Origin: Bacteroidota bacterium
GTDB taxonomy: Bacteria; Bacteroidota; Bacteroidia; Chitinophagales; LD1
Reading direction: 5' to 3'
DNA length: 64,000 nucleotides
Assembly: GCA_947479455.1 (NCBI GenBank)
Contig: CANJZE010000006.1
Span: forward strand, 2,871 to 66,870
Made by a program: the position numbers and the translations under genes. The notes under the pieces were generated by a model. That model saw nothing but the letters and a program-made list of their open reading frames with translations. It was not told where the DNA came from and did no database searches. Shown in pieces: positions 7,320-62,651 of this stretch (positions are counted from its first letter, which is position 1; the number at the start of each line of letters is the position of its first letter).

Positions 7320-8093
7320 ATGGAAAAAAAATTGGAAGCCTTTGCACGTATACTCAAAATTATGGACGAATTGCGAGAACAATGTCCATGGGATAGAAAA
7401 CAAACCTTCGAAACGCTTCGGCCGCTTACCATTGAAGAAACCTACGAACTGAGCGATGCAATTTTGAAGGGTGATATGAAAAACCTGAAAGAAGAGTTAG
7501 GAGATTTGCTTTTGCATTTAGTTTTTTATGCCAAAATAGGAGAGGAGAAAGGCGAGTTTGACATGGCACAAGTCATCAATGATTTGTGTGAGAAATTAAT
7601 TTATCGTCATCCGCATATTTATGCAGATGTAAAAGTGAATAACGAAGAAGATGTAAAGAAAAACTGGGAGCAGTTGAAAATGCGGGAAGGAAAAAAATCT
7701 GTTTTATCGGGCGTGCCAAACGGATTACCATCGCTAATTAAAGCCTTTCGCATACAAGACAAAGCAGCGCAAGTAAAATTTGAATGGGAAAATATTGAAG
7801 ATGTATGGAAGAAAGTTGAAGAGGAAATGCAGGAGTTGCAGTCCGAAGTCCGAAGTCCGAAGTCTGAAATTGCAGTTGAAGAAGAATTTGGCGATTTGCT
7901 TTTTGCACTTGTTAATTATTCGCGCTTTTTAAAGATAGATGCCGAAGCTGCCCTCGAAAGAACCAACATGAAATTCATTCGCAGATTTAAGTTTATTGAA
8001 GAAAAAGCAGAAGCCATGAACAAATCACTAAACGATATGACACTTGGTGAAATGGATGCAATCTGGAACGAAGCGAAGACGAAAGGGTTGTAG
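7320..8093 (+). CDS. mazG: nucleoside triphosphate pyrophosphohydrolase MazG
   Basis: Two MazG EExxE/D modules (TIEETYELSDAI...ELGDLLLHLVFY and EEEFGDLLFALVNY). 257 aa. Confidence 0.9.
   Translation: MEKKLEAFARILKIMDELREQCPWDRKQTFETLRPLTIEETYELSDAILKGDMKNLKEELGDLLLHLVFYAKIGEEKGEFDMAQVINDLCEKLIYRHPHIYADVKVNNEEDVKKNWEQLKMREGKKSVLSGVPNGLPSLIKAFRIQDKAAQVKFEWENIEDVWKKVEEEMQELQSEVRSPKSEIAVEEEFGDLLFALVNYSRFLKIDAEAALERTNMKFIRRFKFIEEKAEAMNKSLNDMTLGEMDAIWNEAKTKGL
7841..7868 (+). repeat. heptamer array GTCCGAA x3 + GTCTGAA inside mazG
   Basis: Read directly. Encodes SEVRSPKSE in the mazG frame. Confidence 0.9.
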
Positions 8094-11338: not shown

Positions 11339-13936
11339 TTATTCAGTTCTAAACACCAATCCGCTTTCAAACGCATCTACAATTATTTTTTTGCCTTTTT
11401 CTACTTCACCCGAAAGAATCTTTTTAGAAAGTTCATTCACCAACTCTTTTTGAATAACCCGTTTCAACGGACGTGCACCATATTGCGGGTCGAAGCCTTG
11501 CTCGCCTAAATAGTCGAGAGCATCGGGAGTAATTTCTAAAGTGATTTCTTTTTGAAGTAATAGCTTCTTTAAATCGTTCAATTGTAAATCAACAATCTGT
11601 CGAATCTGTTTTTTCATTAAAGGATGGAACATTACTATTTCATCAATGCGATTCAGAAACTCGGGACGAACAGATTGTTTCAGCCTTTCCATTACTTCTA
11701 CCTTTGCTTTTTCGGAAACAGCTACTACATCTTTCTCCTTCAGGTTTTCGAATGCCGCCTGAATAATATCGGAGCCAATGTTCGAAGTCATGATGATGAG
11801 TGTGTTTTTGAAATTGACAGTGCGACCTTTGTTATCGGTTAATCTTCCATCATCCAACACCTGCAACAGAATATTGAAAACATCAGGGTGTGCTTTTTCA
11901 ATTTCATCGAAAAGGATAACACTGTAAGGTCTTCTGCGCACAGCTTCGGTCAACTGACCGCCTTCATCGTAACCCACATAACCCGGAGGCGAACCAACCA
12001 GGCGGCTCACCGAATGTTTTTCCTGATACTCGCTCATGTCAATTCGAATCATAGCGTGTTCATCGTTGAACAAAATAAAACTTAATGCCTTGCTCAATTC
12101 GGTTTTGCCAACGCCTGTGGTACCGAGAAACAAAAACGAACCAATAGGTTTGCGTTCATCCTGCAAGCCCGCGCGGCTTCTGCGGATAGCATCTGCCACT
12201 ACGGTAATTCCTTCGTCCTGTCCTTTCACGCGCTCTCGCAATCGGTCTTCAAGGTGAAGCAGTTTTTCTTTTTCGCCTTCGAGCATACGCGTTACCGGAA
12301 TGCCCGTCCACTTGGCTACGATTGCCGCAATGTCTTCGCTAGTTACTTCTTCCTGCAAAATTCTTTTATCGGCAGAAATTTTGTTGAGGTCACCTTCGAG
12401 TTTCTTGATAGCATCTTCAGTAGCTTTAATTTTTCCGTAACGAAGCTCAGCCACTTTACCGTAGTCGCCTTCGCGTTCGAAACGTTCGGCATCTGCTTTA
12501 AACGTTTCTATTTCGCGTTTGCGCGCGGTTATTTTATCTACAATTTCTTTTTCGCTTTGCCACTTCGCTTTAAACTCGGTTCTGCGCTCTTTCAAATTCG
12601 AAAGTTCTTCGTTGAGTTCGCTCAACTTCTTTTTATCGTTCTCGCGCTTGATGGCTTCAATTTCAATTTCAATCTGCATGATGCGTCTTTCAATTTCATC
12701 GAGCTCTTCGGGCATCGAATCCATTTCGAGGCGAAGTTTGGCTCCGGCTTCATCAATTAAATCAATCGCCTTGTCGGGCAGAAAACGCTCGGTGATATAT
12801 CGGCTGCTCAATGTAACCGCGCTGATAATAGCATCGTCTTTAATGCGCACCTTGTGGTGATTTTCGTAACGCTCTTTCAAGCCGCGCAAAATTGAAATAG
12901 CATCTTCCACACTCGGTTCATCTACAAATACTTTTTGGAAACGTCTTTCAAGCGCTTTGTCTTTCTCAAAATATTTTTGGTATTCGTTTAGTGTGGTTGC
13001 TCCCACAGCGCGGAGTTCCCCTCTTGCTAATTCGGGCTTAATAATATTTGCTGCATCCATTGCACCTTCAGTAGCACCGGCACCTATAAGCGTGTGAATT
13101 TCATCAATAAACAAAATGATTTTGCCGTTGCTCTCTTTCACTTCTTTCACCACGGCTTTCAAACGCTCTTCAAAATCGCCACGGTATTTGGCACCCGCCA
13201 TCAGCGCGCCCATGTCGAGCGCGTAAATCACTTTGCTCTTTAAGTTTTCGGGCACATCGCCTTTTACAATACGGTGTGCAATGCCTTCGGCAATGGCAGT
13301 TTTTCCCACACCAGGTTCGCCTACGAGAAGCGGATTGTTTTTTGTTTTGCGACTAAGTATGTGCATCACCCTGCGTATTTCTTCATCGCGACCAATAACC
13401 GGGTCGAGCTTTCCTGCTCGCGCACTAGCGTTTAAGTTGATCGCGTATTTATCAAGCGAATTGTATTTAGCATCCGCACCTTGCTCGGTCACCTTGGTTC
13501 CTTTGCGCAGTTCAATAATTGCCGCGCGCAGTTTCTTTTCTTCTACGCCTGCTTCTTTCAAAACCTTCGTAGCATCGTCATTCATCGCCAACATCGCGAG
13601 TAGCAGAATATCTACACCCACAAAGGTGTCTTCAAAATCTTTCATCACTTTGTTTGCCTGCAAAAGCAATTTGCCGAAATTGGGCGAAGGCACCACATCG
13701 GCATTGCCGCCCGAAACCTTCGGCAGAGCTTTTATTTTCTCTTCCACTTTGCCGAGCAAAATGTTTTTGTTGACACCCGCTTTTTCGAGCACAAAAGGCA
13801 AAGCATCTTCATCGGCAAGCAGCATACCCTTGAGCAGGTGAATGATTTCCATCTGCGGGTTTCCGTTGTTAAAAGCTTCTTGCTGCGCGGTGCTTAGCGC
13901 TTCAAGGGCTTTGGTGGTGAAATTGTTAGCGTTCAT
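11339..13936 (-). CDS. clpB: ATP-dependent chaperone/disaggregase ClpB
   Basis: Clp N-domain, two AAA+ modules ([13 protein letters not shown]; [13 protein letters not shown]), long coiled-coil M-domain. 865 aa. Confidence 0.97.
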
Positions 13937-13940
13937 TTTT

Positions 13941-13975
13941 TGAGTATTGACTAGTTAGTATTGAGTAATGAGAAA
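13941..13975. repeat. heptamer array (TGAGTAT TGACTAG TTAGTAT TGAGTAA TGAGAAA) abutting clpB start codon
   Basis: Read directly. Lies 4 nt upstream of the clpB ATG on the minus strand. Confidence 0.8.
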
Positions 13976-14299
13976 ATATAGAATGCAATGCGCATGCAAG
14001 GTGGCAAATCTCTGTCCACGCTTGTTATGATTACAATTTGGCAGGGGAATAAGCTGAATCAATGACAGAAAGGATGTTTAGATGGAAATGTGGCTGATAA
14101 TTTTGCAGGTAGAAAGGTTTACGGCTTTACAGTTTGAAATCGAATGAGTTCCCTGTTCAAACCTAGCGCAACGGACAAGCCACTTTATATTCCTCAAAAT
14201 CTTCCGCGCTCTTCCCTTCAAAATTTTACATTCGCGCCTCCTAAAAAGAACGGTTGATAGTTCAAAGGTAATGGTAAACAGAGAACTGAATTACCTTGA

Positions 14300-15955
<1,656 letters not shown>

Positions 15956-16080
15956 ATATAAGCACCCTTGTTTGCTTTTACTAAACGGTAATTTGTTTTA
16001 GAGCTAGCCTAGCTTTCGTATAAAACCGCGGAGTTTTTTTTGCTTTTTTCAAGGTTACATACGTTTCACTACTATTGCAC

Positions 16081-16872
16081 ATGCTCAATTTTATCTACTG
16101 GAATCCCTCTCCCGACTTTGTTACCATTGGCACATTCTCTATTAAATGGTATGGCGTTTTTTGGGGCATGTCGCTGTTGTCGTGCTTTTTTATTGGCCGC
16201 TATGTTTTCAAAAAGCTGAACTGGGACGATGAGAAAGTAACACTCCTTATTCAATATATGTTTGTTGGTGGATTGATTGGTGCACGATTGGCGCACATCG
16301 TTTTCTATCAACTCGATTTTTACATAGCGCATCCCGAAGACCTGATTGCCGTTTGGAAAGGTGGCTTGGCAAGTCACGGTGGTTTTGTAGGCGCAGCAAT
16401 TGGGTTGTGGTTGTTCTGCTATTACCACAAAGAGTTTAATTTCTTTCGATTGCTCGATGTGGGGGCAGTGAGTGTTATTGCTTTGGCGGCTCTAATTCGT
16501 TTGGGAAATTTGATGAACTCAGAACTTTACGGCAAAGAAACTTTTGTGCCTTGGGCGTTTGTGTTTGAGCAGGTAGATAATGTGCCGCGTCATGCGGTGG
16601 TATTGTATGAGAGTGTGGCATATTTCATTCTGCAAATAATAATTCTGCTTTTGTTCAACCGTTACAAACTTTCCAAGCCGGGAATGTATTTGGCGTTTTT
16701 CTTCACTACTGTTTTTGGGGTCCGGTTTCTGTTAGAGTTTTTTAAAGTGCCCGATGGACAAATGATTGGCTTCATCAGCAAAACGCAATTGCTCAACCTT
16801 CCTTTCATCATTACAGGTCTTGCATTAACTTATTTATCTGCTAACGATAAATTGAAGTACAGCAATGAATAG
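16081..16872 (+). CDS. lgt: prolipoprotein diacylglyceryl transferase
   Basis: Lgt-type N-terminus (WNPSPDF..IG.FSIKWYG) and GGLASHGG motif. I prefer ATG 16081 over TTG 16075. Confidence 0.9.
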   Translation: MLNFIYWNPSPDFVTIGTFSIKWYGVFWGMSLLSCFFIGRYVFKKLNWDDEKVTLLIQYMFVGGLIGARLAHIVFYQLDFYIAHPEDLIAVWKGGLASHGGFVGAAIGLWLFCYYHKEFNFFRLLDVGAVSVIALAALIRLGNLMNSELYGKETFVPWAFVFEQVDNVPRHAVVLYESVAYFILQIIILLLFNRYKLSKPGMYLAFFFTTVFGVRFLLEFFKVPDGQMIGFISKTQLLNLPFIITGLALTYLSANDKLKYSNE

Positions 16873-16886
16873 TTTTACTTTATTCC

Positions 16887-19004: not shown

Positions 19005-21509
19005 CTAATTTATCTTCCTCCATACGGTTCCATCCGAAATAATTTGGAGCGGAGTGTCCACCGCCAAACTGCTAATGGTTGTAGCACTACCTACGGTAAC
19101 GCTAGATATATTCAGTGCCACGGTGCTATGATTGATGATGGTGTAAAGTCTTCCAACACTGCTACCAGCAGCTGGAATGGTAATTGTTTGGGAAGTGGTG
19201 CTACCGGTAAAAATAAGGCATTGATCATCGGTTGCAAGGGTAGTGCTTGCCGTAACGTTTCGAACTGCTAAAGCAATGGAGCCATTTACATGCAACATAC
19301 TGGTAGGAATATTTATTCCAATGCCAACATTGACGGTGGCAGTGGCACCGTTTACTCCATTCACACTTCCCAGCACCATACTATTACTTTGGTTTACCCT
19401 GGCATTCCATCCAATAGCAGTTGCGTTGATATGGTTCACCGCACTCACATCGGCACTATCGCCCAAGAAGGTATTTCTGCTTCCAATACCGTTAAAGGCA
19501 CCGGCTTTATAACCTACTGCGGTATTTGAATTGCCCGAAGTAGCTGGCAAAGCTTGTTGCCCAAAAGCAGAATTAAAACTACCCGATGAATTGGTAGTCA
19601 TGGAACTGCTGCCGTATGCTGTGTTACTACCACCGGTAGTGTTGTTAATTAAACTGAAATAACCATACGCTGTGTTATCGCTACCTGTTGAGTTGGATAA
19701 TAAAGGTCTATCACCCACACCGGTGTTTCTATTGCCGGTGCTGTTTGCTCCTAATGCAATATTTCCAACCGCAGTGTTAGATGCTCCCGTTGTATTTAAC
19801 TGCAAGCTTGTATAACCAACTGCTGTATTTAAATTGGCAAGGTTTCTTTCCAAAGCTTTGCTTCCTAAGGCCGTGTTTTGTGTGCCGGTAGCATTTAAGC
19901 GCAGCGCACTATCACCTATTGCTACATTGTTCGAAACGGTATTGGTATAAAGCGCCTTTGAGCCTACCGCTACATTGCTATTGCCGCTAACGTTGGTATA
20001 GAGAGCCTGGTACCCAAGGGCTGTATTTGCCCCGCCCGTTGTAGTAAAATAAAGTGTGTTTGTGCCAAAGCCGGCATTGTAACTTCCGGTGGTGTTGTTA
20101 AATAACGACTGGTTACCATAACCCGAGTTAAAAATTCCTGTTGTATTTACTCCTCCTGTTTGATACCCAAAAAAGGCATTAGCCAGCAAATGGTCAATAC
20201 GTCCAGCTTTTTGGTTGTTTACCTTAATGGCAAAAGGAATGTTATCGGTTGTTCCAATGAAATTAGTGCCGTCAACGGTGCCCGTATTACCGATAAGACC
20301 CCAAGCGCTGCTAACTCCATCGGCCCCGCTAGGTCCTGTGGCACCTGTAGCACCAGTTGTTCCTGTGCCCGTTGAACCAGTTACCCCTGTTCCTGCTGCT
20401 CCAGTGATACCGGTTGTTCCGTCTGCACCGGTAGCTCCAGTAGCTCCTGCTGCTCCTGTAGTACCTGCCGCTCCTGTTGTTCCTGCTGCTCCTGTGGCGC
20501 CTGCCGCTCCTGTTGGGCCAGTGTTAACAGCGTTAGAAGCTGCGGCTATCCAGCGGTTATCGGTAGCGTTGTAATGCAGGGTTACAGAACCAAATCCATT
20601 TACGGTTAGGTCGGTACTGTTACCACAGTAAATTCGGTTAGAAATGGTGGAAGAAGTGCTGTTATGAGTTAAGGTCATGTTGAAAGCAGTAGCGTTGTAA
20701 AGCACTAGTATTCTTCCATCCTGACCGCCTGTAAATCCGGTAATGTTGAATGCAGCAGTAGGACCAGTAATGCGATAGAAACTTTTGCCCGCAGGGAAAG
20801 GATTGTTGGCAGTAACTACGTTATTGTTTGCTCCGTTTGCCAAGGTGAGCGCGCCTTCGCGCAGAGCTAAATCTCCGTTAATATCCAGGTAGGTAAGGGG
20901 CGAGCCTCCAATACCTACCAAACCGTTTCTGTTGATACGCATACGCTCTACAGGAGTGGAGGTGGAGTTCCCCGGATTGGTTGAAAAAGCAATTCTGCCT
21001 GCCATATTACTTGTCCCAGAAGTGGAGTCAACAAGCATTTCAATTCGAGCGGCATTTATGTAAACAGAACCATCATAACCACGACCGTCAATACGGCCCA
21101 AAGAGCCAGCGCTACCAATAAGGGTTGGTGCCCCAATAGTGCCACCTGAACGCCTGAACCAAAATTCATTTGGATTACCATAATTGGTTGATATATAGGT
21201 TGGATTGCCATTTTTTGTGTTTGTTATTTCAAGCATGCCACTCAGAGAAGGAACGGTGGTACCAATACCCACTCTGCCACCGGTATCTATGGTCATTCTG
21301 CGAATATTATTGGTGCGGAAGCTGAGGTAATTTTGGTCGGTTGTGCCCACAAAATGTAGGGAAGTATCGATACCGCTATTGCCCTTAATTTTCCAAAAAG
21401 GAAAGGCAGGGTTTTGGGTTTCAGCCTGACCGAATACGCGGTTTGCAGATAAAAATAGAACGAGAACAAAATGGAGTAATGGTTTAAAACGAGCGCAAGA
21501 ATTCTTCAT
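19005..21509 (-). CDS. secreted repeat protein: tail-fibre-like modules + collagen-like GXY tract + NTAxG (Hep_Hag/YadA-head-like) repeats
   Basis: Signal peptide starts at the internal ATG 21509 ([28 protein letters not shown]). GXY triplets run over 20316..20519. There are at least 12 repeats of the ..NTA(V/L/Y)G..(A/S)L..N..G.. type over about 19365..20174. Confidence 0.8.
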
Positions 21510-21708
21510 AATTTTTGAAATGAAATAGAGCTCTTTCTTCGTGTGTGTAAAGAAATAAGCGGTGCAATGTACACCGAAGAATTGAGAAAACAGAATCAAG
21601 AAAGTATTGGTAATGAAGAAGGCTTAAGCTTTGCGTGAAAGTTTTGAATAGCAGGGGTTATCTCTCAATTGCCAGCACTTTTTTCTTCGCTGAACGAGGT
21701 GTGGGTAT

Positions 21709-30020: not shown

Positions 30021-30023
30021 TTG

Positions 30024-30129
30024 CAGACATTAGATGTTAGACTTTAGACAATAGACAACAACCGAGTATGTTGTTTTTTGAAAGTCAAATCTTCAAGTCT
30101 AACATCTATTGTCTAATATCTATAATCTT
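30024..30129. repeat. inverted heptamer arrays (CAGACAT TAGATGT TAGACTT TAGACAA TAGACAA ... AAGTCTA ACATCTA TTGTCTA ATATCTA TAATCTT)
   Basis: Left arm 30024..30058, right arm 30081..30129, reverse-complementary words. The right arm overlaps the last 8 codons of the LMW-PTP gene. Confidence 0.85.
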
Positions 30130-30567
30130 GTCAGTAGCTTCATCGAGCATTTCATAAACTTCTTCGTAATGCTTTTCGCTTTGTCCCCAAGGGTCAGGAA
30201 CGGGTTGGTTCATACCAGGATTTACTTCATTCATTATTAAATGCACCTTCGAAATTTCTTCTTCGCTTTTCGCCATGTCGGTTACATCTTTGTAGTTGCT
30301 GCTATCCATTACATAGATAACATCAAAGTGCTCTAAATCTTTTCTTCGCAAGGGGCGACTGCGCTGATAATTAATATCAATACCATGCTGCTTCATCACC
30401 TTAATTGATTTCTCATTCGGCAACTCGCCTTCGTGCCAATCGCTTGTGCCGGCCGAATCAATTTCCCAATCTAAATTTTTGAGTTCAGCTTTGTGTTTCA
30501 ACAAACCATGTGCAATAGGAGAACGACAAATGTTTCCAAGGCAAACGAACAGAATTTTTAAAGACAT
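30106..30567 (-). CDS. low-molecular-weight protein-tyrosine phosphatase
   Basis: P-loop LFVCLGNICRSP and DP (VPDPW) motif. 153 aa. Confidence 0.9.
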   Translation of the reverse strand: MSLKILFVCLGNICRSPIAHGLLKHKAELKNLDWEIDSAGTSDWHEGELPNEKSIKVMKQHGIDINYQRSRPLRRKDLEHFDVIYVMDSSNYKDVTDMAKSEEEISKVHLIMNEVNPGMNQPVPDPWGQSEKHYEEVYEMLDEATDKIIDIRQ

Positions 30568-31420: not shown

Positions 31421-31663
31421 ATGGCAATTGTTATTGACGATAAAATTTTAATGGCAGCGAATATTACTGAGCGCGAAATGCTCATTGAGATTGCTTTTAT
31501 ACTTTATGAAAAAAATGTTTTTGGGCTTGGAAAGGCAAGGGAGTTCTGCGGACTTTCATTAATGGATTTTGAAGAAGAAATGTATAAGCGCAACATCTCC
31601 AGATTTTCAGAGGAGAGTGTGTTGCAGGATATTCAAACCATGAATAAACTTTTTCCGAAATGA
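31421..31663 (+). CDS. UPF0175-family antitoxin
   Basis: 80 aa. EMLIEIAFILYEKNVFGLGKAREFCGLSLMDFEEEMYKRNI is the UPF0175 pattern. Overlaps the next gene by 4 nt (ATGA). Confidence 0.7.
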   Translation: MAIVIDDKILMAANITEREMLIEIAFILYEKNVFGLGKAREFCGLSLMDFEEEMYKRNISRFSEESVLQDIQTMNKLFPK

Positions 31664-32142
31664 TTGTTGTTTCAGACACTTCGCCAATTACATATCTTTT
31701 CCAAATACAACAGCTTCACTTACTGAAATCACTTTTCGAAACGGTAATTATTCCGCCAAATGTTTATGATGAATTACTGGAAATTCCCGAGCAGAAGGCT
31801 TGGCTAAAAGAGAACTCATCCAATTGGATTCTGGTGAAATCCGTTTCTGACAAATCAGTTGTGGCAGAATTTCAAAAATTATTGGATAAAGGCGAATCAG
31901 AAGCCATTGCCCTAGCAAAGGAATTGCATGCTGATACTTTGTTGATTGACGAAACAAGAGGTAGGGCTATAGCAGAAAAAGAAGGATTGCAGGTAACCGG
32001 TGTAGTAGGTGTTTTGCTCCGAGCGAAACAGCAAAACCTTGTTTCCGCAGTTAAACCATTATTAGATATTCTTATTGAAAAGCGGTTCAGAATTTCTGAC
32101 AAAGTGTATCACGTAGTTTTAAAATCCGCTAACGAACTTTGA
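31660..32142 (+). CDS. DUF3368 PIN-like nuclease toxin
   Basis: MIVVSDTSPITYL...VIIPPNVYDEL...GESEAIALA...LLIDE carries the acidic residues of a PIN-like fold. Confidence 0.75.
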   Translation: MIVVSDTSPITYLFQIQQLHLLKSLFETVIIPPNVYDELLEIPEQKAWLKENSSNWILVKSVSDKSVVAEFQKLLDKGESEAIALAKELHADTLLIDETRGRAIAEKEGLQVTGVVGVLLRAKQQNLVSAVKPLLDILIEKRFRISDKVYHVVLKSANEL

Positions 32143-33548
32143 TTTCCTCTGATACCATCGTGGCGCTCGCCACACCACACGGAGTTGGAGCCATAGGTGT
32201 TATTCGTTTGTCGGGAAGCGAAGCCATTCAAATTACAACGAAAGTTTTTCGTGGTAAAAATTTAGAGAAGCAAGCAAGCCACACCATTCATTATGGTCAT
32301 GTTGTGGATGGAGAGAAAGTAATTGACGAAGTAATGGTTGCGCTTTTTCGCGCACCAAAAAGTTTTACTACCGAAGATGTGGTGGAAATTTCCTGCCACG
32401 GTTCTCCATTTATTGCTGAGCAAATTATTCAGTTGCTGATTCAAAACGGAGCGCGTTCGGCTAAGCCTGGTGAATTTACGTTGCGTGCTTTCATCAATGG
32501 CAGAATTGATTTATCGCAAGCCGAAGCAGTAGCAGATTTAATTGCGAGTGATTCGGCCGCTTCACTTGATTTAGCATTGAAACAAATGCGCGGTGGTTTT
32601 TCTAACGACATAAAAATTCTTCGCACCGAACTCGTCAACTTCGCTTCGCTCATTGAATTGGAATTAGATTTTGGTGAAGAGGATGTAGAATTTGCCGACC
32701 GTAAAAAACTTATAGAACTGATTGATGCTATTCAATCAAAACTGAAACCGCTGATTGAATCTTTCAAACTCGGCAACGTAATTAAGAACGGAGTAAACAC
32801 TGTAATTGCAGGAAAACCGAATGCCGGAAAATCAACTTTGCTCAATGCTTTGCTCAACGAAGAGCGCGCCATTGTTTCCGAAATTCCCGGCACTACACGC
32901 GACACAATTGAAGAAATACTCAACATCAACGGCATTCAATTCCGATTCATTGATACTGCAGGAATAAGAACTACAGAAGATGTAATTGAAAAATTAGGTG
33001 TGGCAAAAACAATGGAGAAGTTGAAGCAAAGCTCCGTTTACATTTATCTGTTTGATGTAAACTCCAGTACACCCGAAGAATTGGTAAAAGAAATTCACGA
33101 ACTCGAATTGCTCGGCTTCAGTGGAATTATTGTTGGAAATAAAATTGACAAAGCCAGTTGGAAAGCCACTGCTCCTTTTTATAAAGTGATGGAAAAGACG
33201 ATAGACAATAGACAAGAGACTATAGACAACCCGGAACTCCTTTTTATTTCATCAAGTACTCAATACAACATTCCATTGCTGAAACAAAAACTTTACGATT
33301 TGGTTTTTCAATCGTCAATCGTCAATCGTCAATCGTCAATCATAACCAATGCTCGACACTACGAAGCTCTTTTAAAAGCAAGCGAAGCATTGAACGAAGT
33401 GATGGTTGGAATCGAAAACCAAAACACAGGTGATTTGGTGGCACTGGATATTAAGCGCTCCTTAGAATACCTCGGACAGATCTCAGGTGAGGTAACTAAT
33501 GATGAGATACTTGGAAACATTTTCTCCAAGTTTTGCATTGGGAAATAA
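32139..33548 (+). CDS. mnmE: tRNA uridine-5-carboxymethylaminomethyl modification GTPase MnmE
   Basis: DTIVALATPHGVGAIGVIRLSG, G-domain GKPNAGKSTLLN / DTAGIR / GNKIDK, C-terminal FCIGK. The apparent TTG start overlaps the toxin stop. Confidence 0.93.
   Translation: MISSDTIVALATPHGVGAIGVIRLSGSEAIQITTKVFRGKNLEKQASHTIHYGHVVDGEKVIDEVMVALFRAPKSFTTEDVVEISCHGSPFIAEQIIQLLIQNGARSAKPGEFTLRAFINGRIDLSQAEAVADLIASDSAASLDLALKQMRGGFSNDIKILRTELVNFASLIELELDFGEEDVEFADRKKLIELIDAIQSKLKPLIESFKLGNVIKNGVNTVIAGKPNAGKSTLLNALLNEERAIVSEIPGTTRDTIEEILNINGIQFRFIDTAGIRTTEDVIEKLGVAKTMEKLKQSSVYIYLFDVNSSTPEELVKEIHELELLGFSGIIVGNKIDKASWKATAPFYKVMEKTIDNRQETIDNPELLFISSSTQYNIPLLKQKLYDLVFQSSIVNRQSSIITNARHYEALLKASEALNEVMVGIENQNTGDLVALDIKRSLEYLGQISGEVTNDEILGNIFSKFCIGK
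33193..33227 (+). repeat. heptamer array inside mnmE (AAAAGAC GATAGAC AATAGAC AAGAGAC TATAGAC)
   Basis: Read directly. Encodes KTIDNRQETIDN. The word is a cyclic permutation of TAGACAA seen at 30024..30058. Confidence 0.85.
33308..33342 (+). repeat. heptamer array inside mnmE (TCAATCG x4 perfect + TCAATCA)
   Basis: Read directly. Encodes QSSIVNRQSSII. Confidence 0.92.
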
Positions 33549-33617: not shown

Positions 33618-34199
33618 ATGAAATATTTTCAATTAATTTTCTTTCTACTCTTTTTTTCTTCTGCTTTCTGCCAAGACACCACAAAAACAAAATTAGAGCA
33701 GTATAAAGAATGGCACGACAAAGGTTTAATTAATGATGAAGAATATGGCTCAAGCAAAGCAAAATTATTGGGCATATCACAATCTAAACCAGAAGTTGCA
33801 ACCCAATCTATAAAACAAACTACAGTGGTATCTTCAGCACGAATTTTTAGACGAGATACTATGGATTTAAAAGATTTAAGAAAAGAATATAAATCTGATT
33901 TTGCTTCATGTGCAGTAGTTTTCTCAATGGGCTCTGTACTCCTTATAAGCGATATGATTTATGCCATCGCAATGAGTAATGCCACATATACCGGAACTTA
34001 TGACCAACAAGAATTTAAAAAAAAATCCATAGCAATTAATGAAAAAGTTATAGCAGGATTTGGGGGTCTACTTGTCGTTGCGGGGTTTATACCTCTTGGT
34101 TTTGGAATAAAAGAAAAGACGGTTTATCTAAATCGTAAAAAACAAGCCCTGTCACTTAATATCCTTCCATCCAAAGTCGGTTTGGCATATGATTTCTAA
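33618..34199 (+). CDS. membrane protein with SHOCT-like motif
   Basis: Signal peptide, LEQYKEWHDKGLINDEEYGSSKAKLLG (SHOCT-like), two C-terminal TM helices. Confidence 0.55.
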   Translation: MKYFQLIFFLLFFSSAFCQDTTKTKLEQYKEWHDKGLINDEEYGSSKAKLLGISQSKPEVATQSIKQTTVVSSARIFRRDTMDLKDLRKEYKSDFASCAVVFSMGSVLLISDMIYAIAMSNATYTGTYDQQEFKKKSIAINEKVIAGFGGLLVVAGFIPLGFGIKEKTVYLNRKKQALSLNILPSKVGLAYDF

Positions 34200-43202: not shown

Positions 43203-44561
43203 ATGAGTGATGTGAAACGAATTAAACCGAGCTTAAGCAAAGGCACCCGCGATTTTTTGCCAAGTGAAGTGGCAAAGCGCAATTATATTTTCAATACAAT
43301 TAAGAGCGTGTTGCGCAAATACGGTTTTGAAGAAATTGAAACACCCGCTATTGAAAAGTTAGAAACACTTACAGGAAAGTATGGTGAGGAAGGAGATAAA
43401 TTGTTGTTTAAGATTTTGAACAGCGGAGATTACCTAACCGAAATACGTAACGGGAAATACGAAATACGAAATTTAGATCCTAAAGAAATTACTCCCCTCA
43501 TAGCTGAAAAAGGTTTGCGTTACGACCTCACTGTTCCTCTTGCTCGCTATGTGGTGCAACATCAGGATGATTTAGCTTTCCCTTTCAAGCGCTTTCATAT
43601 TGGTCCGGTTTGGAGAGCTGATAGACCACAAAAAGGACGCTATCAAGAATTTTATCAGTGCGATGCAGATGTAATTGGAAGTAATTCGCTTTTGAATGAA
43701 GTGGAGTTAACAAAAATTTATGTGGAGGTTCTTTCACAATTGCGAATTGCCAATTGCAAGATTCGAATTAATAGCCGTAAAATTCTTGAGGCTTTAGCCG
43801 AGTATGCCAACTGCAAAGATTTGATTACAGTTATAACTGTGGTGATTGATAAACTTGACAAGATTGGCATAGAGGGAGTAAAAACAGAGTTAAACAAGCT
43901 GAATCTTTCGCAAGTTCAACAGGAAAAAATTTTAGCTCTTCTTCAAACGAAAACATTAACAGAGCTGAGTTCTGTTTTAGGCAACATTGAAAAAGGCAAA
44001 AAGGGTATTGAAGAACTGAATCTAACTTTCAAAAACGTAAACTCTAAAAATTTATTTTTTGACATTACCCTTGCGAGAGGATTGAACTATTACACCGGAA
44101 TTATTTGGGAAGTAGTTTGTAACGATGTTCAAATCGGTTCCCTCGGTGGTGGAGGGCGTTATGATAACCTGACCGAAATGTTTGGCGCACAAAATATGAG
44201 CGGAGTGGGTATTTCATTCGGCATTGAACGCATTTACGATGTCCTTGAAGAACTACAACTGTTTCCTGAAAATATTACACAAGGCGTAAAAGTATTGTTC
44301 GTACCGCGCGAAGAATCAGTTGAGGAATTTACTTTTCAACAAGTACAGCTACTACGCGATGCTGGCATAGCAGCCGAAATTTTTCTCGGCAACGTTAAGA
44401 AGCAGAAACAATTCAATTATGTAGAGCAAAAACACATTGCCTACCTAGTAGAAATAGGCGGTAATGAAGTGCAATCGGGCAAGTTCCGTTTGCGCAATTC
44501 GCAAACACGCGACACCGAAGTTGATCTCACCACCGATGATATAATCAGCCGACTTTCCTGA
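43203..44561 (+). CDS. hisS: histidine--tRNA ligase
   Basis: Class II motifs (GTRDFLP, LRYDLTVPLARY, FHIGPVWRADRPQKGRYQEFYQCD, GGGRYD..., GISFGIER). Confidence 0.95.
   Translation: MSDVKRIKPSLSKGTRDFLPSEVAKRNYIFNTIKSVLRKYGFEEIETPAIEKLETLTGKYGEEGDKLLFKILNSGDYLTEIRNGKYEIRNLDPKEITPLIAEKGLRYDLTVPLARYVVQHQDDLAFPFKRFHIGPVWRADRPQKGRYQEFYQCDADVIGSNSLLNEVELTKIYVEVLSQLRIANCKIRINSRKILEALAEYANCKDLITVITVVIDKLDKIGIEGVKTELNKLNLSQVQQEKILALLQTKTLTELSSVLGNIEKGKKGIEELNLTFKNVNSKNLFFDITLARGLNYYTGIIWEVVCNDVQIGSLGGGGRYDNLTEMFGAQNMSGVGISFGIERIYDVLEELQLFPENITQGVKVLFVPREESVEEFTFQQVQLLRDAGIAAEIFLGNVKKQKQFNYVEQKHIAYLVEIGGNEVQSGKFRLRNSQTRDTEVDLTTDDIISRLS
43439..43473 (+). repeat. heptamer array inside hisS (CGAAATA CGTAACG GGAAATA CGAAATA CGAAATT)
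   Basis: Read directly. Encodes EIRNGKYEIRN. Confidence 0.8.
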
Positions 44562-62616: not shown

Positions 62617-62651
62617 AAAGTTAGAAGACCGAAGCCGGAAGTCCGAAGTAA
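62617..62651. repeat. heptamer array (AAAGTTA GAAGACC GAAGCCG GAAGTCC GAAGTAA)
   Basis: Read directly, in the SIS-rluD spacer. GAAGTCC is a cyclic permutation of the GTCCGAA word inside mazG. Confidence 0.85.

Follow-up and report, generated by a model that had tools for sequence, protein, structure and literature searches.

Two tandem heptanucleotide arrays within the mnmE gene of a Chitinophagales bacterium

Introduction

Tandem repeats with a unit of seven nucleotides are cited as the most abundant class of long simple sequence repeats (LSSRs) in most genomes, and in the accounts given there of the survey by Mrazek, Guo and Shah (2007), units whose length is a multiple of three are found most often in coding regions and a footprint of the polymerase is proposed for the 7-nt register (Mrazek 2007 via PMC4679880, PMC4692102). 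Heptamer arrays have been noted in a few Bacteroidetes and inverted heptamer pairs in Xanthomonas (PMC4679880, PMC4692102), and other heptamer repeats occur in spacers of Gramella and Aequorivita (PMC4679880). The present analysis concerns two such arrays, here termed array 1 and array 2, inside mnmE, the gene of the tRNA-modification GTPase MnmE, in a bacterium of the Bacteroidota (Chitinophagales, LD1). The gene lies on a stretch of 64,000 nt (contig CANJZE010000006.1 of assembly GCA_947479455.1, positions 2,871 to 66,870), called the window throughout, in which both arrays had been predicted from the sequence alone. Both are probably tolerated heptanucleotide simple sequence repeats (SSRs) that came from slippage or homogenisation biased towards a 7-nt register, were filtered in the coding frame, inherited, and spread by recombination; they are read as passengers and not as functional modules.

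As far as the survey of Mrazek (2007) is quoted in later papers, the LSSRs described there resemble the arrays of the window in consisting of head-to-tail 7-nt units beyond chance expectation, in having seven as their commonest period and in a presumed origin by slippage. Within the same limits of the quoted account, the present case differs in that period 7 dominates inside a conserved essential gene, with 12 arrays against one of period 6 and none of period 9, and in that the arrays are fixed at five units while the sequence of the unit turns over between lineages.

Two further groups of repeats come close to the present one. The short tandemly repeated repetitive (STRR) sequences of Calothrix and Nostoc and the GGGAATC/GGGGAYT repeats of Xanthomonas and Nostoc share with the window genome-specific heptamers at many loci, convergent inverted pairs able to form hairpins, and differences in length and sequence among close relatives at one and the same intergenic position (PMC4692102). 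Those repeats are intergenic, often G-rich and quadruplex-forming (PMC4692102), whereas the units described here are AT-rich, belong to several families, stand in frame in housekeeping genes and occur in a Chitinophagales host. The TAACTGA repeats of Beggiatoaceae, Cyanobacteria and five Bacteroidetes likewise form heptamer arrays, in which the unit is present 2-6 (up to 43) times; many of them stand directly upstream of start codons and few in open reading frames (ORFs), where their orientation is limited by stops (MacGregor 2015, PMC4679880). They comprise a single unit and are mostly intergenic, the cases within ORFs being located at protein termini or in hypothetical proteins (PMC4679880). 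The units of the window, by contrast, are diverse and fall in internal loops of MnmE, HisRS and MazG.

Repetitive DNA that survives in conserved coding genes by way of surface loops and a kept frame has a further parallel in the Rickettsia palindromic elements (RPEs), for which Ogata et al. (2000) reportedly described in-frame insertion into conserved genes. RPEs, at ~100-150 bp, are palindromic, dispersed and alike in their consensus, whereas the tracts in mnmE are 35-nt tandem heptamers that have no flanks in common and are separated by native MnmE sequence. Finally, phase-variable contingency loci also carry an SSR within an ORF, where a change of one unit shifts the frame (PMC4692102, PMC2651432); here, in contrast, a short array for which no copy-number variation is seen stands in a housekeeping gene, and decayed alleles persist.

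Two heptamer arrays in mnmE

The gene, its landmarks and the two arrays are located as follows (positions of the window).

32139..33548, plus strand: mnmE, GTPase of carboxymethylaminomethyl synthesis at tRNA U34, 469 aa, identified from profile, structure and motif evidence
33138..33149, plus strand: G4 motif NKID, landmark upstream of array 1
33196..33230, plus strand: array 1, AGACGAT AGACAAT AGACAAG AGACTAT AGACAAC, encoding KTIDNRQETIDN (aa 353-364)
33193..33229, plus strand: 21-nt (7-codon) higher-order repeat within array 1, positions 33193-33208 and 33214-33229 being 88% identical
33243..33257, plus strand: FISSS, G5 region, native conserved MnmE sequence between the two arrays
33308..33342, plus strand: array 2, TCAATCG x4 + TCAATCA, encoding QSSIVNRQSSII (aa 391-402), (Q)SSIVNRQSSII

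The gene is a bona fide MnmE/TrmE GTPase, as had been predicted. It reaches 397.4 bits against TIGR00450, the MnmE equivalog profile (cutoff 252.6), with residues 11-469 covered, and its best matches in the PDB are the MnmE structures 3GEE, 1XZP, 3GEH and 9HIP. The G1 motif GKPNAGKS (aa 225-232), the G3 motif DTAG (272-275), the G4 motif NKID (334-337) and the C-terminal CIGK (466-469) are all present, and all four are invariant in an alignment of 37 Chitinophagales MnmE proteins.

Tandem Repeats Finder (TRF) reports array 1 at 33196-33229 (period 7, 4.9 copies, 81% matches, consensus AGACAAT) and array 2 at 33308-33341 (period 7, 4.9 copies, 100% matches, TCAATCG), in both cases with the units in register. 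Period-7 arrays of at least 3.5 copies number nine in the window and none in 30 dinucleotide shuffles, and on the strength of this contrast and of the TRF copy numbers both tracts are classed as heptanucleotide long SSRs. Broken down by period, the window arrays comprise nine of period 7, three of period 8 and one of period 9, and a run of 27 consecutive period-7 matches has ~1e-11 expected occurrences per 64 kb. The original prediction had placed both arrays inside mnmE, array 1 between the G4 motif and G5 and array 2 directly before (T)NARH, and had translated them; positions and translations alike are borne out, with TNARH standing at aa 403-407 immediately after the array 2 peptide. The 21-nt super-period of array 1 (88%) suggests an in-frame duplication of three units.

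That one or both arrays are artefacts of assembly or sequencing has virtually no probability. Nothing specific speaks for it beyond the principle that short perfect repeats can be mis-assembled, whereas the identical MnmE protein is encoded on 14 independent contigs of 20-200 kb, which argues that the arrays are genuine. Moreover, a separate assembly (L207) has no differences over the 1410 nt of mnmE, both arrays recur, with point differences of their own, in independently assembled relatives (ENA and Logan assemblies of related populations), and arrays of 35 nt are shorter than one sequencing read. An assembly error at array 2, an objection anticipated in the prediction, is ruled out by the same observations.

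Placement in the protein was read from alignments and from an AlphaFold model built from 37 relatives, the fold of which matches MnmE structures at moderate model quality (predicted local distance difference test (pLDDT) 69; template modelling (TM) scores of 0.36-0.44 to MnmE structures) and which was relied on solely for local secondary structure and confidence. Array 1 falls at the end of helix 341-356 and in the loop before the strand leading into G5, and array 2 in the linker from the last G-domain helix (378-391) to the C-terminal helical domain; pLDDT is below 50 at aa 359-362 in the former and at aa 394-403 in the latter. The loops of the MnmE G domain are exceptionally tolerant of insertions and deletions (indels), and both arrays lie in variable segments, in agreement with the surface or linker positions that had been proposed for them. 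The further proposal, that both segments are longer than in typical MnmE and represent loop insertions, holds for array 1 and fails for array 2. Array 1 replaces 18 nt (ESGKNF) of 90%-identical sister alleles with 36 nt, i.e., six residues with 12 (+6 aa), and corresponds to a 9-aa gap in the MnmE of Chlorobium tepidum (3GEE); on these alignments it is best described as a lineage-specific lengthening of the loop between G4 and G5. Array 2 adds 2 aa relative to sister alleles and none relative to the Chlorobium protein; it aligns without gaps to 3GEE and to Nostoc MnmE, the Thermotoga protein being one residue shorter. It is an overwritten linker of conserved length and not an insertion.

Distribution among relatives and recombination

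The distribution of the arrays was followed in the alignment of the 37 Chitinophagales MnmE proteins and in a DNA alignment of the loci L001-L006. Among the proteins, the array 1 peptide is confined to the window, P0002 and P0003 (94% and 93% identity), and P0004-8 (90% identity) are 6 aa shorter there, with ESGKNF-PH in its place. The array 2 peptide is found in the same three proteins and, in the decayed form FQSPMVNGQSSIV, in P0009/L006 (87% identity), where array 1 is absent; most other relatives have (QLA)TSNLQPDSTVV at this site, which is 2 aa shorter. At the DNA level both arrays are present in the window, L001 and L002, and (TCAATCG)5 is perfect in L001, deviates at two positions in L002 and at about eight in L006, and is absent from L003-5. 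The encoded residues are not conserved beyond the immediate clade, in keeping with the prediction that they are no part of common MnmE sequence. Since a decayed array 2 is found in the more distant L006/P0009, which has no array 1, array 2 is the older of the two, and an equal age of both arrays does not hold up.

The mnmE gene of L001 (10001-11407) is a mosaic. In terms of sliding-window identity, its first ~900 nt are 92-98% identical to L003, and the segment with both arrays, nt ~900-1200, resembles the window. Alleles of the window type and of the L003 type are found together in sample ERZ28612979. Taken at the level of these alignments, the array-bearing segment of mnmE has evidently been exchanged between related populations by homologous recombination, and this movement explains the patchy distribution of the arrays.

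The unit TCAATCG itself is widespread well beyond the window lineage. Exact (TCAATCG)x3 occurs in at least 120 metagenome contigs (L087-L206), mostly of high GC content (median 57%) and with up to 16 perfect copies, and some of them, e.g., L130 and L090, carry matches on opposite strands. No mnmE allele of the window clade was found among the matches listed (at least 120 metagenome stretches).

Constraints on arrays in coding DNA

Copy number at array 2 is constant, with five units in all four lineages that carry it (window, L001, L002 and, decayed, L006). No copy-number variant was found among these four lineages or among the 14 contigs with identical protein, and a polymorphism between related genomes, which had been considered in the prediction, is thus not seen in them. 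The internal order of array 1 differs between lineages, with a super-period of 14 nt in L001 (90% matches, against 78% at period 7) in place of the 21 nt of the window.

In the rest of mnmE, 25-38% of the codons for identical amino acids carry a silent change. Array 1 shows silent changes in 2/10 and 2/9 codons, as expected, and array 2 in 0/12 (P 0.03), 2/12 and 1/9, which is at most slightly low; by this codon count, both arrays drift at about the rate of silent substitution. A purifying selection that would act on them at the DNA level was considered and is not established, with array 1 as expected and array 2 marginally low in one of three comparisons.

A 7-nt array traverses the three reading frames every 21 nt. 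In the sense orientation TCAATCG contains no stop codon; AGACAAT contains TAG, and the third unit of array 1 ends in G or C, not T, in all three genomes. Slippage by one or two units in either direction truncates MnmE before CIGK, and steps of three units alone keep the frame. When all loci are taken together, ORFs make up 82% of the bases but contain 19 arrays, against 49 outside them, and the maximum copy number is 6.1 in coding arrays as against 15.7 in noncoding ones. Arrays in coding DNA are a selected minority. A general weak 7-nt periodicity of MnmE loops was rejected as their basis; the strong tail alone differs from control regions, and the arrays are therefore better regarded as sporadic events than as a property of the loops.

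Period-7 bias and mnmE enrichment across Bacteroidota

As a background, 80 Bacteroidota loci (L007-L086; 1.3 Mb) were chosen by MnmE homology alone, with the window clade excluded and mnmE placed at ~10001; the closest locus among the matches listed (at least 600 candidate stretches from a species collection) is 71% identical. In this set, period 7 accounts for 59 arrays of at least 3.5 copies, period 8 for 17, and periods 6 and 9 for six each. A similar bias is seen in the gene itself. Among 85 Bacteroidota mnmE genes, four-copy arrays with at least 80% self-match number 12 at period 7 and 0-3 at each of the other periods from 4 to 11. Seven of the 12 are independent, all of them in G-domain loops or the linker and each with another unit. 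Their units include ATACCTC, GTACAAA, AGATCTC, AGATTTA and AACCAAC, and another relative, P0022, has (AAAGNNN)x6 in the G4-G5 loop. The claim that two arrays in one conserved gene are unusual does not survive this comparison. In addition to the seven independent arrays, the two Flavobacterium loci L052 and L070 each have a second, shorter mnmE array of 3.1-3.3 copies, and hisS in the window carries two arrays as well.

In the 80 loci, ten arrays begin at a distance of 30-152 nt before the start codon of mnmE, and nine are found within the gene or directly behind it, against ~1.7 expected per 500-nt bin. An array within 200 nt upstream is found at 9/80 mnmE genes and at 11/774 other genes (odds ratio 8.8, P 2.6e-5); corrected for spacer length, the density is 0.79 per kb upstream of mnmE and 0.18 elsewhere (~4-fold, P 5.8e-5). 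Intragenic arrays number five in 110 kb of mnmE and one in 838 kb of other ORFs (0.046 vs 0.0012 per kb, 38-fold, P 1.1e-4). The mnmE-associated arrays come from several lineages, including Flavobacteriaceae, Cytophagaceae, Roseivirgaceae and Mucilaginibacter, and have differing units; some lie right next to the ATG or make up an extension of the N-terminus, and no motif common to all of them was found. The indel tolerance of the G-domain loops may account for the intragenic excess. As a whole, the enrichment at mnmE in Bacteroidota is unexpected, and it was observed in a test set independent of the window clade.

Proximity to the replication origin was rejected as a cause of this hot spot, as the window shows no switch in GC skew and the chromosomal position of mnmE in the three complete genomes is 8%, 64% and 75%. 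On a wider scale, array clusters in the 80 loci number 26 in the 10 kb upstream of mnmE and four in the 10 kb downstream (14 vs 4 by locus, P 0.03), an excess that may reflect gene content.

Other heptamer arrays of the window and turnover of units

Seven further period-7 tracts of the window are located as follows.

30025..30057, plus strand: array in the nusB/phosphatase spacer, AGACATT AGATGTT AGACTTT AGACAAT AGACA, of the array 1 unit family; left arm of a hairpin
30097..30123, plus strand: complementary array GTCTAAC ATCTATT GTCTAAT ATCTAT; right arm of the hairpin
43439..43472, plus strand: (CGAAATA)x4.9, in frame inside hisS
43738..43769, plus strand: (AATTGCG)x4.6, second hisS array, in frame
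7840..7868, plus strand: (AGTCCGA)x4.1, in frame inside a MazG-domain gene
62624..62649, plus strand: intergenic (GAAGTCC)x3.7, a rotation of AGTCCGA, between PGI-like and pseudouridine synthase genes
13940..13972, minus strand: (TTGAGTA)x4.7, ending 4 nt before the start codon of clpB, a gene on the minus strand

The word of array 1 had been said to recur in an intergenic hairpin next to nusB, and this is confirmed. Between nusB and the phosphatase gene, which converge, the spacer (30021-30130) folds into a strong hairpin (dG -34.9, z -5.6). Its outer stem consists of the two complementary heptamer arrays, with AGACATT-type units in the left arm, and nested inside the hairpin is a second stem that has a U-tract and resembles a terminator. 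The array of the right arm extends over the 3' end of the phosphatase gene, on the minus strand, and provides the TAG stop of this gene (30106). The array in front of clpB resembles the start-proximal heptamer repeats of Beggiatoaceae and Flexibacter (PMC4679880).

At the first hisS site the window has GAAATAC where L001 (20359-20383) has (GAAGCAA)n, in the same position and at the same length, which by sequence comparison is a clear case of unit turnover without change of length. In the nusB-phosphatase spacer, the arrays of the window, L001 and L002 are of the form AGAYNNN, and that of L003 is AATGCAG. At the array 2 site of mnmE, alleles without array 2 still have a period-7 self-match of 0.43 (L003, in which CAAC recurs four times at intervals of 7 nt) and 0.47 (L007), and more distant relatives ~0.2-0.3. 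Together, the raised 7-nt self-match and the changes of unit in hisS and the spacer point to long-lived sites at which units turn over while length stays constant.

Origin of the two arrays

The reading given at the outset, that of tolerated SSRs, would entail the following sequence of events. Replication or repair in Bacteroidota would make tandem arrays and re-homogenise them mostly in a 7-nt register. To be retained in a coding gene, an array has to pass three filters, namely a sense orientation free of stops, a net change of length by a multiple of three that keeps the C-terminal CIGK, and a peptide that falls in a flexible surface segment. Array 2 came first, at a linker where relatives show decayed 7-nt periodicity, and array 1 later in the G4-G5 loop. 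The units were then reshuffled in each lineage, as in the 14-nt super-period of L001 and the 21-nt super-period of the window, with the total staying at five units, and homologous recombination moved the array-bearing segment between related populations.

Several observations sit uneasily with such an origin. It is hard to see how simple local slippage could give rise to a 7-nt array in an essential gene, where every change by one unit shifts the frame. Both mnmE tracts look like replacements and not like pure insertions, units recur at unrelated sites of one genome at ~15 times the between-species rate, and mnmE is enriched 38-fold over neighbouring genes, none of which slippage explains. Finally, the differences in array 1 among the three genomes all fall at unit positions 5-7, with the AGAC core invariant in 15/15 units, and this invariant core hints at a constraint at the DNA level or at homogenisation.

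Some of these features would also follow if genome-specific heptamer families were dispersed in the manner of STRR sequences, arrays being seeded or overwritten by ectopic gene conversion or template switching; array 1 would then be templated from the AGACAAT arrays 3 kb upstream. Such an origin is unlikely. Identical units more than 1 kb apart make up 5% of array pairs within a locus and 0.32% between species (14% vs 4.2% when up to one mismatch is allowed), a ~15-fold contrast that is inflated by differences in base composition between species. Within the window, AGACAWT is found at 30025, 30097 and 33196 and AGTCCGA at 7840 and 62624, and in L052 large arrays 8 kb upstream consist of the same unit as the arrays in mnmE. 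Replacement with a change of length, as seen in both mnmE tracts, is what template switching would give, orthologous sites carry other units at equal length, and inverted partners are found near 11 arrays against one control at a threshold of at least 17/21 matches, mostly as intergenic hairpins. However, arrays with the same unit have no flanking similarity, none being detected between the AGTCCGA arrays at 7840 and 62624, which lie 55 kb apart; no terminal repeats or target duplications were seen; the array 2 unit has no second copy in the window; and the decayed periodicity at the same site in relatives favours evolution in place. For the genome of the window the comparison spans 64 kb, in which two to three loci per unit are visible.

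A rather doubtful reading of the enrichment is that mnmE is a preferred site in Bacteroidota for the writing and rewriting of heptamers, at its leader, its start codon and three G-domain loops, in many lineages. A mechanistic or regulatory link specific to the gene, through tuning of the start region or an array-prone locus, is very doubtful. The upstream frequency, the per-kb spacer density and the 38-fold intragenic excess reported above would all fit such a link, as would the differing units in several lineages and the arrays that abut the ATG or extend the N-terminus. The arrays nevertheless have no motif in common, mnmE in the window has no upstream array, and the loop tolerance could by itself explain the intragenic excess. 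Codons read through MnmE-modified tRNAs are not enriched in the arrays either, with 6/24 counted against a rough gene-wide estimate of ~29%. It should also be borne in mind that the hypothesis was formed after the data had been seen, though the test set is independent of the window clade.

It is highly improbable that the two arrays act as the arms of an imperfect inverted repeat, forming an mRNA or DNA hairpin around the segment that encodes G5. The arms (33197-33232 and 33302-33337) show 72% complementarity over 36 nt, with a duplex dG of -18.7 kcal/mol that 8.5% of random array pairs match or beat; the mnmE arrays of L052 are roughly complementary too, those of L070 more weakly, and inverted partners near arrays are generally enriched. 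Yet the fold of 33185-33350 is no better than that of shuffled sequence (z = -0.82; 40/200 shuffles equal), the duplex loses strength in L001 (dG -12.4, equalled by 19.5% of the null), L006 with array 2 and without array 1 has a single arm, and two random heptamers have an estimated chance of ~13% of reaching 5/7 complementarity in some rotation. The hairpin was rejected on its unremarkable fold and duplex energies and on its weakness in L001. No Rfam match at gathering threshold was found in the window or in seven array-rich loci.

Equally improbable is the perfect array 2 as a contingency locus, in which a change of one unit would switch MnmE off and alter translational fidelity in a subpopulation. 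A gain or loss of one or two units does truncate the protein before the catalytic CIGK, array 2 is perfect in the window and L001, and heptamer SSRs are slippage-prone in principle (PMC4692102). The constant five units in four lineages and the identical protein on 14 contigs stand against a switch, as do the persistence of a decayed, non-slippery array 2 in L002 and L006, the shortness of five units for this purpose and the lack of any frameshifted allele among the homologues. An in-frame mobile element of palindromic type, like an RPE or a miniature inverted-repeat transposable element (MITE), was rejected on the lack of shared flanks, the native MnmE sequence between the arrays and the placement of array 2, which is no insertion.

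By themselves, the two tracts change little about the biology of MnmE. The arrays amount to a natural experiment on the old question of why 7-nt units dominate bacterial tandem repeats. As the gene is universally conserved, orthologous array sites can be aligned across lineages, and the aligned sites show turnover of units at constant length, filtering by stops and frame, and spread by recombination. Should the enrichment at mnmE hold genome-wide, it would point to an undescribed process or function specific to the locus. If mnmE were indeed a preferred site, it would follow either that the locus has a mutational mechanism of its own or that arrays which read the same in every frame are functionally coupled to the enzyme that safeguards the maintenance of the reading frame; the two arrays of the window would be one visible instance. 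In practical terms, the arrays give housekeeping proteins lineage-specific peptides with a 7-residue period, a possible source of error in alignment, annotation and phylogeny.

Gene neighbourhood of mnmE and a further repeat

Both junctions of mnmE vary among relatives. In the window a UPF0175/DUF3368 gene pair (31421-32142), likely toxin-antitoxin-like, lies between the YCII gene and mnmE; in L001, L002 and L003, which have no such pair, the stop of the YCII gene overlaps the mnmE start. At the downstream junction the window has an extra ORF of 193 aa (33618-34199) with a weak SHOCT match, and in L002 an island of ~5 kb (11547-16879) that includes a tyrosine integrase occupies the same junction; L001 and L003 carry neither the extra ORF nor the island.

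Elsewhere in the window, a tract with periods of 9, 18 and 36 nt (20434-20515, plus strand; GCTCCTGYN...) matches a collagen-like stretch of Gly-Ala/Thr triplet repeats in a minus-strand ORF of 864 aa (19005-21599). It appears to be an ordinary in-frame repeat.

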